Part shown: piece after piece, positions 33,889 through 38,051 of the stretch
Layout of the letters: every line of letters starts with the position of its first letter
How positions within the stretch are numbered: the first letter of the stretch is position 1
Translations under genes and position numbers: made by a program
Source of the DNA: a virus
Lineage: Duplodnaviria; Heunggongvirae; Uroviricota; Caudoviricetes
Direction: 5' to 3' (one strand)
Length of the DNA: 64,000 nucleotides
IMG/VR virus record: IMGVR_UViG_2850796239_000011
Span: 1 to 64,000 of that record
Notes under the pieces: model-generated
The model's database searches: none
What the model was told of the DNA's origin: nothing
What the model saw: the letters and a program-made list of their open reading frames with translations, nothing else

Positions 33889-34102
33889 CTCCCAGGCGTT
33901 TAAACATTTTTCCGGACTGAAACGCCACCAGCGGATAACTCAGGGTATGAGTACGTCCCTGAACCTGGCAGACAACCTTCTGGCTTTCTGTATTGACCAG
34001 GCAAACCCGCAGAACGTGGCCGTTGCTGGTGGTGAACCACTGCCCCACTCGGGGGCAACGGTTGTATCGGTGATACAGGGAATTAACGATGCGGCGAATC
34101 AT
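33869..34102 (-). CDS. Hypothetical small protein
   Basis: 77-aa ORF between the Rha and initiator genes. Confidence 0.35.
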   Translation of the reverse strand: MIRRIVNSLYHRYNRCPRVGQWFTTSNGHVLRVCLVNTESQKVVCQVQGRTHTLSYPLVAFQSGKMFKRLGGGYASV

Positions 34103-34662
34103 GGACGCACCTCCTTGTCAGAACCATTCAGCCTGGAATCAACAAGTGCAGCACCAAAAACAGCATCACCTACACGGTCGTACAGTTTGCTGGCCAGCGG
34201 AGATTCAACAGCCTTAAGCATTGGGTAAAGCTGGCTTGTCCAGATTTGATGGATTTCACGCAAATGCAGGTATACGCCTCTGGCGTTTTGTGCGACAGAT
34301 GACATGTCAGCCGCACCAGCTCCTGATAAGCTCCTCTCCATCTGGTTAAAGGCATTGATGTATGCCTCTTTGAACCGGGCGGCACGTTTACCAGTGAAGC
34401 CCATAGCAAGGAAGGCGAAGCCGTCGCGGGTGATTTGGTAGCAGGGAAGTTTGCGAGTACCGCCGTTGGGCTGGCGTACCAAAATTGATGTCTCCGCAAA
34501 ATTGCGGGCACAAAACTCTGGAGAACAATCCAAAATGCGGATCTTTTTCAGAACATCGTCATGACGTTTAGAGAAGAAGTTGGCAACAGCCAGGGATGAA
34601 GTAACAGCCTGACCATCAACGATGGCAATTTCAGGTTGAGTGAGGGTTGGGATCGTAGCCAT
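34099..34662 (-). CDS. Rha-family phage regulatory protein
   Basis: Only the C-terminal 187 codons of the 620-aa ORF look genuine ('MATIPTL...LAVANFFSKRHDDVLKKIRIL'); ATG at 34660-34662. Confidence 0.65.
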   Translation of the reverse strand: MATIPTLTQPEIAIVDGQAVTSSLAVANFFSKRHDDVLKKIRILDCSPEFCARNFAETSILVRQPNGGTRKLPCYQITRDGFAFLAMGFTGKRAARFKEAYINAFNQMERSLSGAGAADMSSVAQNARGVYLHLREIHQIWTSQLYPMLKAVESPLASKLYDRVGDAVFGAALVDSRLNGSDKEVRP

Positions 34663-35016
34663 GATGGCAGCCTCTTTGGTGATTTTTAATAACTCACCAC
34701 CAAAGCTTCTCACGGCAATAGGTGGTGAGACGTACAGGGGTGAGAAACCGGTCACCAAAGAACCCGGCCCAACCGAAGTTGGCCCTGCACGCCCCACCAT
34801 AATTTGGGCGTAATGCTGCTCATGACACAAAAAAACCGCAAGAGCGCGGTTGTGCGCTTTGGTGAATTCCGGGTTCTCACGCCCGGCACCCGCTTTATAA
34901 GGTGCGGAGACAGTGTAACGTCCCGAAATTGCAGAATCAATATCAAAATGTTGTAGCTGTGGACAACGCGAAGCCTTGTTGTTATTGTTTACAACAAGAA
35001 CCAGAGGAAGCTTTAA

Positions 35017-35304
35017 ATGCCATCCAGACTGTATAAACAGTTCATCCGTCATCTCGGTGAATCTGAATACATACGAATCCGCATATGGGAAGTGGAGCCT
35101 GCTGTATTGGGTAGCCAGCACAACTACAAATACAGCATGGCTTATGTCGTTGATGGCATGTGTGTGATGCGTTACGACAACGAACGGGGTAAAGGCGATC
35201 ACAAACACATTGGTAGTCAGGAAGTCAGCACCAGCTTTGTCACCATTGAACAACTGCTCGCTGATTTTCTGGCTGACGTTGAATCCATCCGCAGAGGTAT
35301 CTGA
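35017..35304 (+). CDS. Putative toxin-like protein (DUF6516/TumE-like motif)
   Basis: 95 aa; RBS GAGGA 8 nt upstream; motif 'MRYDNERGKGDHKHIG'; stop 1 nt before the next start. Confidence 0.55.
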   Translation: MPSRLYKQFIRHLGESEYIRIRIWEVEPAVLGSQHNYKYSMAYVVDGMCVMRYDNERGKGDHKHIGSQEVSTSFVTIEQLLADFLADVESIRRGI

Positions 35305-35305
35305 C

Positions 35306-35665
35306 ATGAGAACCGTAACAATCCGAATCGAGTCAATGGATAATTTCACGGCTGATGTGCTGTCTGCGTTCCAGGAAGCAGCTACCGGAGCAAAAGCAAC
35401 CAGAGAAAACGTTATTTCATTTCCTGACTGGCAAATGATGCATAAGGTACTGACACCAAAACGCATGGACATTCTGATGGCAATGACTGGTGCCGGAGAA
35501 ATGTCCATCCGAAAAATTGCAGCCCTGGTTGGACGTGATGTAAAAAGCGTGCATACTGACGTGACCGCACTCATCAGCAACGGTTTACTGGAAAAAAGCG
35601 AGCGCGGAACGTCATTCCCGTATGACGACATCCACTTTGATTTTACGCTGGGCAAGGCGGCGTAA
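35306..35665 (+). CDS. Putative winged-HTH DNA-binding partner (antitoxin-like)
   Basis: 119 aa from ATG at 35306; MarR-like wHTH segment 'LTPKRMDILMAMTGAGEMSIRKIAALVGRDVKSVHTDVTALISNGLLEKSE'. Confidence 0.55.
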   Translation: MRTVTIRIESMDNFTADVLSAFQEAATGAKATRENVISFPDWQMMHKVLTPKRMDILMAMTGAGEMSIRKIAALVGRDVKSVHTDVTALISNGLLEKSERGTSFPYDDIHFDFTLGKAA

Positions 35666-35882
35666 TTTTTCGTATATACCGTGCCGTCATTCCGGCGGCG
35701 CTTCACACTCCACAAAATCACGCCTGAACAACCACAACGGGCTGAAACATTCATATGGATAACCATCACGCAGATAAATAACCCGCTGTGTTTCAGGCTC
35801 CCAGCGTATAACGTGGACGCGGCGCCCTCTGCCATCACGGAACCAGCGATTGAGGACTTGCATAAATTACCCGTAAACATCG

Positions 35883-36596
35883 TCACACCTGCCAGCCAGT
35901 AGCCTGAAACAGGCCCATTCTCGGGTGATACCAGCGGGTACCACGCTGAACGGCACCACACATCATGTGATGAAACGCCTTCAGAAACGGTTCCACAGCA
36001 ACAATTTCACGACGTGCCAGTAATCCATCTGGCGTCAAAAATTCATGAGTGTCTGTCGGGATGTTGTATGCATTTACAAGCGTGCGACATTTCGCATCTG
36101 ACATACCGGTTTTTGCTTTCAGCTGGCGATATCCGGCATAGCCCTCACGAATGGTACCCTTTTTGATTTGCTCAACTGTTTCGGCAACATGGCTGACTTT
36201 TTCTTCCACCTGAGTGATCCGTTTCTGCTGGCGAACGGCTTCAAGAGCCATCGCGGCAACCATTTCGATTTCGCTCATTGGCTTACGGATCTGTTCTTCC
36301 AGTTCGCGCCAGCGATCTACCAGGCGAGCAGTGAATTCAGGACAGAGCTGTGCGACGACAATGATACTGTCGCGCTTACCTTGTTCTCCTTCAAACAGGT
36401 AATGCTCATATTGAACTTTAAAACCTAAGTTATTGATTCTTTCGGAAACCTCAATTTGAGGAGACCGGACAACGCCACCTTTGGCTAATGTTTCAATAGT
36501 GCGTTTCACATTGTCATGACGCTTACCCACCAGTTCTGCGATCTCAACGCTGGTCATGGATGCTTTGTCGTTAAAAATTGCGGTGTTCACTGCCAT
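35883..36596 (-). CDS. Rha-family phage regulatory protein
   Basis: N-terminus 'MAVNTAIF...MTSVEIAELVGKRHDNVKRTIETL'; ORF trimmed to this Met. Confidence 0.75.
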   Translation of the reverse strand: MAVNTAIFNDKASMTSVEIAELVGKRHDNVKRTIETLAKGGVVRSPQIEVSERINNLGFKVQYEHYLFEGEQGKRDSIIVVAQLCPEFTARLVDRWRELEEQIRKPMSEIEMVAAMALEAVRQQKRITQVEEKVSHVAETVEQIKKGTIREGYAGYRQLKAKTGMSDAKCRTLVNAYNIPTDTHEFLTPDGLLARREIVAVEPFLKAFHHMMCGAVQRGTRWYHPRMGLFQATGWQV

Positions 36597-36709
36597 CTCC
36601 TTACGGATAAATTCTTTTAAGATTCCGCACATTCGTACTTGTTGGTGCCGAACCTTCCTTCAGTTATCCTTTTGATCCCTATAAACAAAAGAACCAAAGG
36701 AGGTTCGAC

Positions 36710-37003
36710 ATGAAAGTTCAGGCCGTTGGTTTATTCTGGTTTCGCGATGCTATTCAGTATCATGAGTTCAAAAAGATTTTTACTGATGCAGATGTGCTCT
36801 CCGACAGTTACACCTAGTGGAAACACGACGCTGAAAAATTGATTAAGCGTGTCGAAAGAAGCGGGCAACGAGTTATTAAAGTTGAAGCGGATACAACCGA
36901 GTTCATCACCTGGTGTACAAGCGAAGGCATTGGACTCAATGCCAAAGGTAGAATGCAGTTCGCATCCTTTAAGGCTTACCAACAACTTCTCAGCGAACGC
37001 TAA
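36710..37003 (+). pseudogene. Small ORF with strong SD interrupted by an in-frame TAG at codon 36
   Basis: AAGGAGG 6 nt before ATG at 36710; 35 codons, TAG at 36815-36817, then 61 more in-frame codons to TAA at 37001; Lys/Glu-rich protein-like composition. Confidence 0.35.
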
Positions 37004-37073
37004 TGTGATTGGGGCAATCGAAATGGTTGCCCCATCGTATTTAATAGTTATTTTTTCGCTCATATCACCACCA

Positions 37074-37283
37074 TCACTTCTCATCCTCTGTGTGCGCTAA
37101 GCTTGGATGTGTATATGGAATGTTCGGATCCAGATGGCAGAGAATGGCAACATCCTCCGGAACGCCCCGCGTTTTCCACTTTCCAACTCCCTGACTACCA
37201 CGAGGCTTTCCTTTCTTTGGAAACCTGCGGCCAATAGCGGCATTGGTTTTAAATTGAGTTTTTAATATTTCATAAAGGGTCAT
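37074..37283 (-). CDS. Cro-like early regulator (putative)
   Basis: 69-aa ORF divergent from cI with ~110-bp operator-like intergenic region; assignment by position. Confidence 0.45.
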   Translation of the reverse strand: MTLYEILKTQFKTNAAIGRRFPKKGKPRGSQGVGKWKTRGVPEDVAILCHLDPNIPYTHPSLAHTEDEK

Positions 37284-37394
37284 TCTTTAGCCTCACACCG
37301 GATACTCTGTTATCCAAGAATGTTAAACATGAGAATCCAAAGTATCAAGATATTCTGTTACTTTAGTATCAGCAGCCATGAAAGGAGAAGAAAA
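37284..37394. promoter_or_regulatory. Immunity-region operator/promoter region (PR/PRM-like)
   Basis: Minus strand TTGATA-N17-TAACAT toward cro; repeated 'AGTATCA'/'ACTTTAGT' motifs; plus-strand RBS AAAGGAG before cI. Confidence 0.4.
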
Positions 37395-38051
37395 ATGAAA
37401 TCTTTAGGTGAACGCCTAATCAACGCACGACAAAAAGCTGGGTTAACGCAAGATGCGTTGGCTAAAAAAGCAGGGGTCACCAGAGTTGCAATCAGTAAAG
37501 CCGAGCAAGGCCTTACAAAAAGTTTCAACGGTGACACCCTTTTTAAAGTCGCAGCTGCACTGCAGTGTTCACCGCAGTGGCTTCAGAACGGAGATGAGAA
37601 AGGTAAGCATTGGGAAAATAATGTTAAGAGTTGCCCCCAGAGGGACACAGCACACTCTTACCCTGTAATTAACTGGGTTCAGGCAGGATTATTCACAACT
37701 GCAGGTGATGACTACAACATGTATGATCAGGATAACTGGAGGCATTCTGTAAAATACGCTGGTGAGAGGGGGTTCTGGCTGGAAGTGCACGGAGACTCAA
37801 TGACTTCGCCTATAGGAATAACATTTCCTGAAGGAATGTCGATCCTTGTCAACCCAGATAAAGAAGTTTTTTCAGGGTGTTACGTCATTGCCAGAAAAAA
37901 ATCCACCAATGAAGCAACATTCAAAAAATATATTTCTGAAATGGGAAAGGCGTTTCTAAAGCCCCTTAATCCACAATACCCAATCATAGAAATGGACAAT
38001 GATTGCGAAATAGTAGGCGTTGTGGTTGATGCCAGATGGGATATTTTCTGA
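37395..38051 (+). CDS. cI: CI-like repressor (HTH-XRE + S24 LexA-like peptidase domain)
   Basis: N-terminal HTH ('LTQDALAKKAGVTRVAISKAEQG'), C-terminal S24-like domain with 'HGDSM'. Confidence 0.85.
   Translation: MKSLGERLINARQKAGLTQDALAKKAGVTRVAISKAEQGLTKSFNGDTLFKVAAALQCSPQWLQNGDEKGKHWENNVKSCPQRDTAHSYPVINWVQAGLFTTAGDDYNMYDQDNWRHSVKYAGERGFWLEVHGDSMTSPIGITFPEGMSILVNPDKEVFSGCYVIARKKSTNEATFKKYISEMGKAFLKPLNPQYPIIEMDNDCEIVGVVVDARWDIF

Follow-up and report, generated by a model that had tools for sequence, protein, structure and literature searches.

Two tumE- and tumA-type genes

In the window analyzed here, the whole 64,000-nt stretch formed by positions 1 to 64,000 of the Caudoviricetes record IMGVR_UViG_2850796239_000011, two small plus-strand genes lie within an otherwise minus-strand lambdoid early-right operon, between two genes of the Rha type. 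They encode a putative toxin of the TumE family and its putative winged-helix partner, and they are the subject of this report.

35017..35304, plus strand: ORF1, tumE, putative toxin, 95 aa (PF20126, phrog_16135, WP_001141116.1, AlphaFold2 [AF2] model)
35306..35665, plus strand: ORF2, tumA-type putative antitoxin/repressor, 119 aa, winged helix-turn-helix (wHTH) (PF25212, WP_001300492.1, AF2 model)

A single base separates the stop of tumE (TGA, 35302-35304) from the ATG of tumA at 35306, and a Shine-Dalgarno-like AGAGG stands 8-9 nt 5' of both open reading frames (ORFs). The original prediction, made from the letters alone, had described two coupled plus-strand genes, the second with a good ribosome-binding site, and its coordinates match the ORF calls exactly. 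It had also placed them in minus-strand surroundings between Rha genes, which is what profile searches return: the right Rha gene matches Pfam Phage_pRha and the left one phrog_518/821, called 'Rha family' by PGAP.

The product of tumE is identical to RefSeq WP_001141116.1, 'toxin-antitoxin system TumE family protein', covers phrog_16135 end to end and passes Pfam PF20126 ('Toxin TumE', formerly DUF6516) with 56.9 bits against a gathering cutoff of 23.4 (E=2.1e-15, profile positions 6-81 of 81), which bears out the resemblance to DUF6516/TumE proteins that had been suspected. The same domain is present in 114/114 TumE homologs. The motif singled out earlier, RYDNERGKGDHKH, is real, and it forms the conserved core of the family in an alignment of 66 homologs, where G60, D61, H62 and H64 are invariant and Y53, D54, N55, E56, G58 and K59 are at least 90% conserved. 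The core segment G-Y-D-N-E-R-G-K-G-D-H-K-H reads the same from Rhizobium to E. coli, one rhizobial deletion excepted, and its invariant GYDNERGKGDHKH part is a candidate functional or active site. In the AF2 model built on the 66-sequence alignment (predicted local distance difference test, pLDDT, 94.9), six β-strands precede a single long C-terminal helix.

Two side observations concern this gene. One Rhizobium copy (L006, 3001-3282), in which six residues (DNERGK) of the near-invariant motif are missing, is perhaps a toxin in decay. In three RefSeq genomes that are each 99.9% identical to the window (L002, NZ_CM177020; NZ_CP011416; NZ_CM177010), tumE is not annotated, and PGAP extends the coding sequence (CDS) of the left Rha gene to window position 35052, across the tumE start.

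The second product passes PF25212 (HVO_A0114) with 87.2 bits against a cutoff of 27.6 (E=6.5e-25) and matches RefSeq WP_001300492.1, 'HVO_A0114 family putative DNA-binding protein'. It had been called a MarR-like winged helix-turn-helix, which holds for the fold and fails for the family: the MarR model PF01047 gives 14.2 bits against a cutoff of 24.6 (E=0.04), HTH_20 and IclR also stay below threshold in Pfam, and NCBIfam and PADLOC return only the generic winged helix of Csa3/CasR/ArsR. In a fold search the nearest solved structures are ordinary ArsR/MarR-type winged helices, with E-values of 2e-3 or worse. The AF2 model (pLDDT 78) is confident in the wHTH, at residues ~42-112, and has a low-confidence N-terminal strand and helix, which looks like the kind of end common in antitoxin regions that fold on their toxin. 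No RelE/HigB/MqsR signature was found in the pair by NCBIfam and Pfam profile searches. Profile searches of both proteins, suggested in the original prediction, thus matched the TumE and HVO_A0114 families, and the pair is a member of a known, already annotated family whose RefSeq names are in use. Many older records label the TumA-type winged-helix protein (P0115 and relatives) 'glycosyl transferase family 1', evidently a legacy mis-annotation.

TumE and TumA homologs form compact, mostly enterobacterial families. An HVO_A0114 partner lies directly downstream of TumE on the same strand in 92/93 loci, with a gap of 1-4 nt or an ATGA overlap, and at the sole exception a contig end cuts the locus; the 93 loci include 73 on viral contigs and reduce to 58 distinct modules. 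The pair is chromosomal in Rhizobium, between dnaB and alr; it lies within a P2-like element in Thiothrix, in P4-like islands with an integrase, AlpA and a D5/DUF927 primase in Salmonella, Pantoea and Yersinia, and in lambdoid prophages of Serratia, Salmonella and E. coli. Among 5426 complete E. coli genomes the module was found in 21 (9 at ≥99% identity and about 10 at ~79%), and two strains carry two copies, one beside Rha and one beside an ash gene. A Salmonella P4-like island also holds an int-alpA RNA (Rfam; L009, 6960-7027, minus strand).

A mobile cassette with its own control region

The two genes occupy a discrete insert that carries its own signals:

34944..35693: mobile cassette, ~750 nt, as delimited against the empty site
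34949..34968: operator 1 (predicted), TGTTGT-N8-ACAACG palindrome, overlapping the -35
34960..34988, plus strand: promoter-like site, -35 TGGACA (34960-65), 17-nt spacer, extended -10 TG-TATTGT (34983-88)
34975..34998: operator 2 (predicted), CTTGTTGT-N8-ACAACAAG perfect palindrome, enclosing the -10
35643..35675, plus strand: terminator-like hairpin and T-run, overlapping the tumA stop codon

In a blastn comparison with an empty-site prophage (L004, E. coli RM10042), window position 34943 joins 35694 with about 3 nt between them, and the insert is therefore ~750 nt long. Phage phiSTEC1589-Stx1c (L001) carries a 77%-identical copy with another flank, opposite to its neighbors and homologous over 34948-35706. 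In sister prophages the identical slot holds a RelE/ParE toxin with a helix-turn-helix (HTH) antitoxin (L005, 3314-3995; L096, 1793-2471), toxin-first and on the plus strand, and in L095 it is occupied by a co-oriented ProQ/FinO gene. The final ~11 nt (GCCGTCATTCC) of the L005 RelE cassette recur at the end of the TumEA cassette, a hint that the two may be inserted or exchanged by a common mechanism. The comparison with related prophages that had been recommended thus finds the slot empty, TumEA-filled or RelE/HTH-filled, and the earlier reading of the pair as a moron stands on this presence/absence polymorphism with defined boundaries and on the cassette's own promoter, operators and terminator.

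The promoter-like site lies 30-57 nt upstream of tumE, and in three diverged modules (L001, L014, L020) a TTGACA, read from the sequences, stands at the equivalent place, where it overlaps operator 1 in its right arm. Thirteen of 15 enterobacterial modules have two palindromes, at about -68 and -40, which gives four half-sites, one per 14 bp, from about -68 to -26 relative to the ATG. Across diverged modules the operator arms are conserved and the spacers vary freely. The half-sites fall into two classes, TGTTGT and TGATGT, the change being mirrored in both arms of both sites, and these classes split perfectly with the recognition helix of TumA (13/13): the helix reads RDV(K/R)xVH(T/S)D(V/I)T in 6/6 modules of the TGTTGT class and RDF(R/K)xV(Y/H)xD(V/I)(Q/L/D) in 7/7 of the TGATGT class. 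This is the pattern expected were TumA a dimeric repressor of its own operon.

Weighing the toxin-antitoxin reading

We propose that the pair is a moron of a lambdoid prophage, namely a self-contained type II toxin-antitoxin (TA) cassette belonging to the TumE-TumA superfamily, and on the sequence evidence we put the probability of this reading at roughly 0.8. Established here are the family membership of both proteins, their conserved pairing in a fixed gene order, the limits and polymorphism of the cassette, and the promoter/operator layout with its antitoxin co-variation. What we infer in addition are toxicity, neutralization, target, operator binding and biological role. TumE would be the toxin and, by family inference, would block protein synthesis; the 119-aa winged-helix TumA would be the antitoxin that binds it, and a TumA dimer would repress its own promoter through the two TGTTGT-N8-ACAACA operators over the -35 and -10. 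Since the cassette runs against the pR-type early operon, with a promoter and a terminator of its own, it should be expressible in the lysogen while that operon is repressed.

The superfamily has an experimental precedent. Six environmental gammaproteobacterial TumE-TumA pairs, all of subcluster 1a, proved toxic in E. coli, and in each the partner neutralized the toxicity; one TumE toxin inhibited translation, as seen from a lowered 35S-methionine incorporation, and an RNase activity was proposed and not proven (Durairaj et al., 2023, Nature, PMC10584680). The earlier claim that the function had no prior test therefore fails at the level of the family and holds for this architecture and for a role in the prophage. 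The window locus shares with the superfamily a toxin domain that passes the family model, a tightly coupled bicistron and a small partner predicted to bind DNA; it belongs to the superfamily and falls outside the tested subcluster 1a. In clusters 1, 2, 4 and 6 the partner gene mostly precedes that of the toxin, and one cluster-1 TumA partner is a remote RelB homolog (PMC10584680). The validated pairs are neither enterobacterial nor phage-borne, whereas that of the window sits in an enterobacterial prophage.

Several points weigh against our reading. The six validated pairs have a smaller antitoxin, unlike a wHTH, and belong to subcluster 1a of a cluster that is mostly antitoxin-first, whereas the window pair is toxin-first, and all of them fall outside its architecture of a toxin-first order, an HVO_A0114 partner and a toxin of 93-95 aa. 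The family fold described by Durairaj et al. (2023) packs two helices against an antiparallel sheet of seven strands; the six strands and one helix of the window model look like a trimmed version of it. A fold search of the PDB yielded no solved structural relative of TumE, as was likewise the case for the family (PMC10584680). Finally, in a scan of PADLOC-DB v2 no defense model was matched, TumE reaching a best E of 0.045.

HigBA and MqsRA are toxin-first type II TA modules with an HTH antitoxin. Together with the RelE/ParE-HTH pair of the same slot they resemble the window cassette in having a toxin followed by an HTH antitoxin, palindromic operators over the promoter, and mobility; they differ in that their toxin fold and family are unrelated to TumE.

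As to the benefit of the cassette, prophage retention and abortive infection against other phages are the likely options. It is conceivable, and we hold the idea tentatively, that the pair serves against phages, by abortive infection or superinfection exclusion, and is not an addiction or stability module, with TumE released upon phage-induced host shut-off. The module occurs almost only in elements that carry defense functions (lambdoid prophage early regions, P4-like islands and a P2-like element), is rare and patchy in E. coli (21/5426 genomes), and swaps with another TA in the same slot, all of which would suit such a role. The absence of any matching PADLOC model, with TumA meeting only the generic wHTH of CasR/Csa3, speaks against it, as do the chromosomal position of the Rhizobium pair between dnaB and alr and a literature search that found no link of TumE to phage defense. 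A literature search on HVO_A0114 found nothing relevant. Read as a TA cassette, the window pair would give TumE its first phage-borne, toxin-first module for which an operator code is defined, and it would offer an E. coli-native system for TumE biochemistry and for setting prophage stabilization against phage blocking.

An antisense frame free of stop codons

A minus-strand ORF of 620 codons (34099..35961) crosses the whole cassette in frame with the left Rha gene. The same property recurs in other modules: in 16/26 distinct modules with a +1 gene offset one antisense frame is stop-free over tumE and tumA together, with a codon-resampling probability of 0.008-0.10 for each of the 16. Stops and codons were counted in 15 diverged +1-offset modules of 45-55% GC, with the expectation for each gene and frame taken from window codon usage:

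tumE, codon-aligned antisense (the open frame): 2 stops observed, 20.5 expected
tumA, matching antisense (the open frame): 7 observed, 22.1 expected
tumE, antisense control frame +1: 64 observed, 60.5 expected
tumE, antisense control frame +2: 60 observed, 55.1 expected
tumA, codon-aligned antisense (control): 58 observed, 34.8 expected
tumA, antisense control frame +1: 115 observed, 110.6 expected

The depletion corresponds to an avoidance of TTA, CTA and TCA by tumE, in which TCA makes up 1/64 Ser codons and TTA/CTA 1/73 Leu codons; the figures for tumA, in the same operon, are 35/105 and 23/132. Third-codon-position identity of tumE between modules is 0.41-0.52, near saturation, so the codon avoidance is not a simple inheritance of the same codons, and for the same reason the antisense peptide sequence is not conserved. 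That peptide has no PHROG match and no conservation beyond what the sense genes impose. A within-gene synonymous shuffle (P=0.107) was replaced by resampling from window codon usage, because the shuffle retains the depleted codon pool of tumE itself and so understates the signal.

Modules with the other offset (ATGA overlap) show no stop depletion; they are mostly non-enterobacterial and, where gene calls are available, co-oriented with their neighbors. A comparison of antisense stop counts between antisense-lying and co-oriented modules was dropped as confounded, the co-oriented modules all having a different tumE/tumA offset. In the two enterobacterial modules that do have antisense stops (L016, L035), the nearest C4/isrK unit is at least 600 nt away.

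Such a long frame raises the question of whether the minus-strand ORF 34099-35961 is the real gene and the plus-strand pair a set of shadow ORFs. It is 620 codons long and stop-free, and in three near-identical genomes PGAP runs the Rha CDS to 35052 and omits tumE; both plus-strand products, on the other hand, score far above curated family cutoffs, the pair is conserved even in loci with 5-13 stops in every antisense frame, and the antisense peptide has neither a PHROG match nor a conserved sequence (third positions 0.41-0.52). We consider this explanation very improbable. The minus-strand ORF as the sole gene is refuted, and the data support its translation alongside the plus-strand genes.

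The isrK/C4 leader and the left antirepressor

To the left of the cassette the open frame runs through two structured RNAs into the antirepressor gene:

34829..34905, minus strand: isrK Hfq-binding RNA, Rfam RF01394, 63.6 bits (gathering cutoff, GA, 50); backbone, not cassette
34718..34804, minus strand: C4 antisense RNA/orf45-like leader, Rfam RF01695, 83.4 bits (GA 45), with an in-frame ATG at 34800
34099..34662, minus strand: left Rha-type antirepressor, 187 aa from MATIPTL, Shine-Dalgarno AAAGAGG, phrog_518/821, PGAP 'Rha family'

The 285-nt stretch that separates the cassette from the left Rha gene folds far better than shuffles (z=-3.8), and an a1b1 target motif within 34718-34918 (minus strand) is sub-threshold (24.1 vs 46.7). 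That this stretch is an N-terminal domain of Rha, as PGAP and PHROG imply, was rejected: it holds the isrK and C4 RNAs, and it is the nucleotide sequence of the leader, not the peptide, that is conserved (PMC4825925). PHROG profiles of the left-Rha type carry an N-terminal extension of 100-143 aa that is really the isrK/C4 leader.

The isrK/C4 pair adjoins tumE on the left in most enterobacterial loci; it is also present at empty and RelE-filled sites, and so belongs to the backbone, not to the cassette. isrK is transcribed divergently from tumE, and its 5' end lies 112-114 nt from the tumE ATG in the window (112), L001, L014, L027 and L042, and 103-151 nt from it in L044 and L043. The ATG at 34800, at +106 from the isrK 5' end, is in frame with the left Rha gene. 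The window leader presumably also resembles the P1/P7 immI c4-icd-ant locus. Upstream of an Rha gene in phage phiSTEC1589-Stx1c (L001) lies an sRNA-Xcc1 (Rfam; 3826-3916, minus strand).

A close counterpart has been described in Gifsy-1, where isrK is followed by orf45, with its first AUG at +107, and then by the antirepressor gene anrP (Hershko-Shalev et al., 2016, PMC4825925). There, anrP is translated only when ribosomes elongate through orf45, whose nucleotide sequence is conserved and whose amino-acid sequence is not, and in a Shigella variant orf45 is fused to anrP to give a protein of 287 aa (PMC4825925). The window shares with Gifsy-1 the isrK and C4 RNAs, the Rha-type antirepressor and an orf45-like AUG, and in both, ribosome passage along the leader would be what allows the antirepressor to be made. 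It differs in two ways: the leader ORF and the antirepressor form one continuous frame, as in the Shigella variant, and the open frame extends upstream through an opposite-strand TA cassette to a start coupled with the preceding stop. No description of this upstream extension was found in PMC4825925, and a literature search on isrK with TA cassettes found nothing relevant.

Our reading of the isrK promoter is a -35 TTGATT (34940-35) and a -10 TACACT (34917-12), which fall below the scan threshold. If it is correct, the cassette boundary lies 3 nt from this -35 and the two promoters stand back to back with operator 1 between them. This proximity lends itself to another interpretation of the pair, in which both proteins are non-toxic regulators, a DNA-binding repressor and a small co-regulator that tune the isrK/C4-antirepressor promoter, and the name TumE is misleading here. 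Operator 1 lies about 9 bp from the presumed isrK -35, the distance of 103-151 nt from the isrK 5' end to the tumE ATG is kept in diverged loci, and the window subfamily is shorter than the tested toxins. We nevertheless judge this improbable: the TumE motif is strongly conserved where isrK/C4 is absent (Rhizobium, Thiothrix), the promoter position is our own sub-threshold reading, and the same slot takes an unrelated RelE/ParE TA, which points to a generic TA niche.

Possible translation through the slot

Returning to the toxin-antitoxin cassette, we asked how far its open antisense frame depends on the cassette itself. The frame and the genes it meets on the right are as follows:

34099..35886, minus strand: long 'transit' ORF, GTG 35886; stop-to-stop 34102-36006 (1.9 kb)
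35687..35863, minus strand: DUF4222 (Pfam), between the module and the right Rha gene
35883..36632, minus strand: right Rha, Pfam Phage_pRha

From its start the frame passes through DUF4222 (in the +1 frame), the whole cassette (antisense), isrK and C4, and then, in frame, the left Rha gene. The GTG at 35886 overlaps the right Rha stop (GTGA, 35886/35885); further on, at 35880, stands a conserved ATG that has an AGGTG Shine-Dalgarno. Other occupants of the slot behave alike. The RelE-HTH cassette has 15, 0 and 11 stops in its three antisense frames over 682 nt (P≈0.06-0.07), the +1 frame of the co-oriented ProQ/FinO gene in L095 is open (P≈0.01), and that of DUF4222 is open in 7/7 loci (P≈0.045 each, the loci being related). 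At all of these loci the open frame shares its phase with the Rha or ash gene that lies downstream, and it reaches back ~72 nt (168 nt in L097) into the upstream gene, and at about 10/12 independent junctions a start codon in the open frame overlaps the stop of that gene. These are ATGA or GTGA junctions, usually with an AGGAGG-like Shine-Dalgarno, in L005, L009, L014 (four units), L041, L042 and L044. A conserved start codon for the antisense ORF was sought inside the cassette and none was found; the conserved starts lie at the stop of the upstream gene. The open frame thus appears to be a property of the slot, not of TumE.

The transit arrangement is also seen where the slot has other contents, and in Serratia, Salmonella and P4-like contexts. 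One Serratia prophage (L014, 1145-3889) has four tandem isrK/C4-antirepressor units, in each of which the ATG or GTG of the leader ORF overlaps the stop of the previous gene. In cassette-free units the ORFs have 287-290 codons, in agreement with the 287-aa fused protein of PMC4825925.

Selection against stop codons, one possible cause of the depletion, would imply that the frame is translated, since only translation gives such selection sense. We suggest, at about even odds, that translation passes through the cassette antisense and into the Rha antirepressor. On a read-through transcript of the early operon, ribosomes leaving the upstream gene would restart at the start codon that overlaps its stop (GTGA/ATGA), cross the cassette antisense, melt the isrK terminator and the C4 structure, and enter the antirepressor in frame. 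Such translation would bypass the small RNA control (IsrK/C4) that acts on transcripts from the isrK promoter, and/or prevent premature termination, and a cassette would persist in the slot only if it is in frame and 'transparent', that is, free of antisense stops, to the crossing ribosomes. This constraint would explain the avoidance of TTA, CTA and TCA by tumE as well as the open RelE cassette and ProQ/FinO gene. The copy in L001 weighs against it, its cassette being open though its ORF ends before isrK. We found no description of a transit constraint on moron evolution or of such a layer of antirepressor control.

If this is true, genes inserted backward into an operon are not free passengers, and their reverse strand is shaped codon by codon for the ribosomes of that operon. 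It would also link hotspots of TA and defense cargo to the isrK/C4 antirepressor switch and explain the recurrent over-long 'Rha' annotations, and antisense stop depletion would provide a simple sequence test for other translated-through inserts.

Neighboring genes

The minus-strand neighbors of the pair form the lambdoid early-right operon, which continues beyond the left antirepressor with O-like, DnaC-like and DnaB-like replication genes. At its other end lie two further genes, identified by ORF and profile calls:

37074..37283, minus strand: cro-like gene
37320..38051, plus strand: LexA-like repressor gene

A second plus-strand gene lies within this minus-strand operon at 36710-37084. It belongs to phrog_4753 (97 aa), is intact in L002, and in the window is interrupted by a nonsense mutation (GAG to TAG at 36815). 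It is overlapped by a minus-strand ORF of 117 aa (36731-37084, of no PHROG family), which is uninterrupted and whose start lies 8 nt ahead of the stop codon of the cro-like gene. This region could be a second translated-through insert, or a gene called on the wrong strand.

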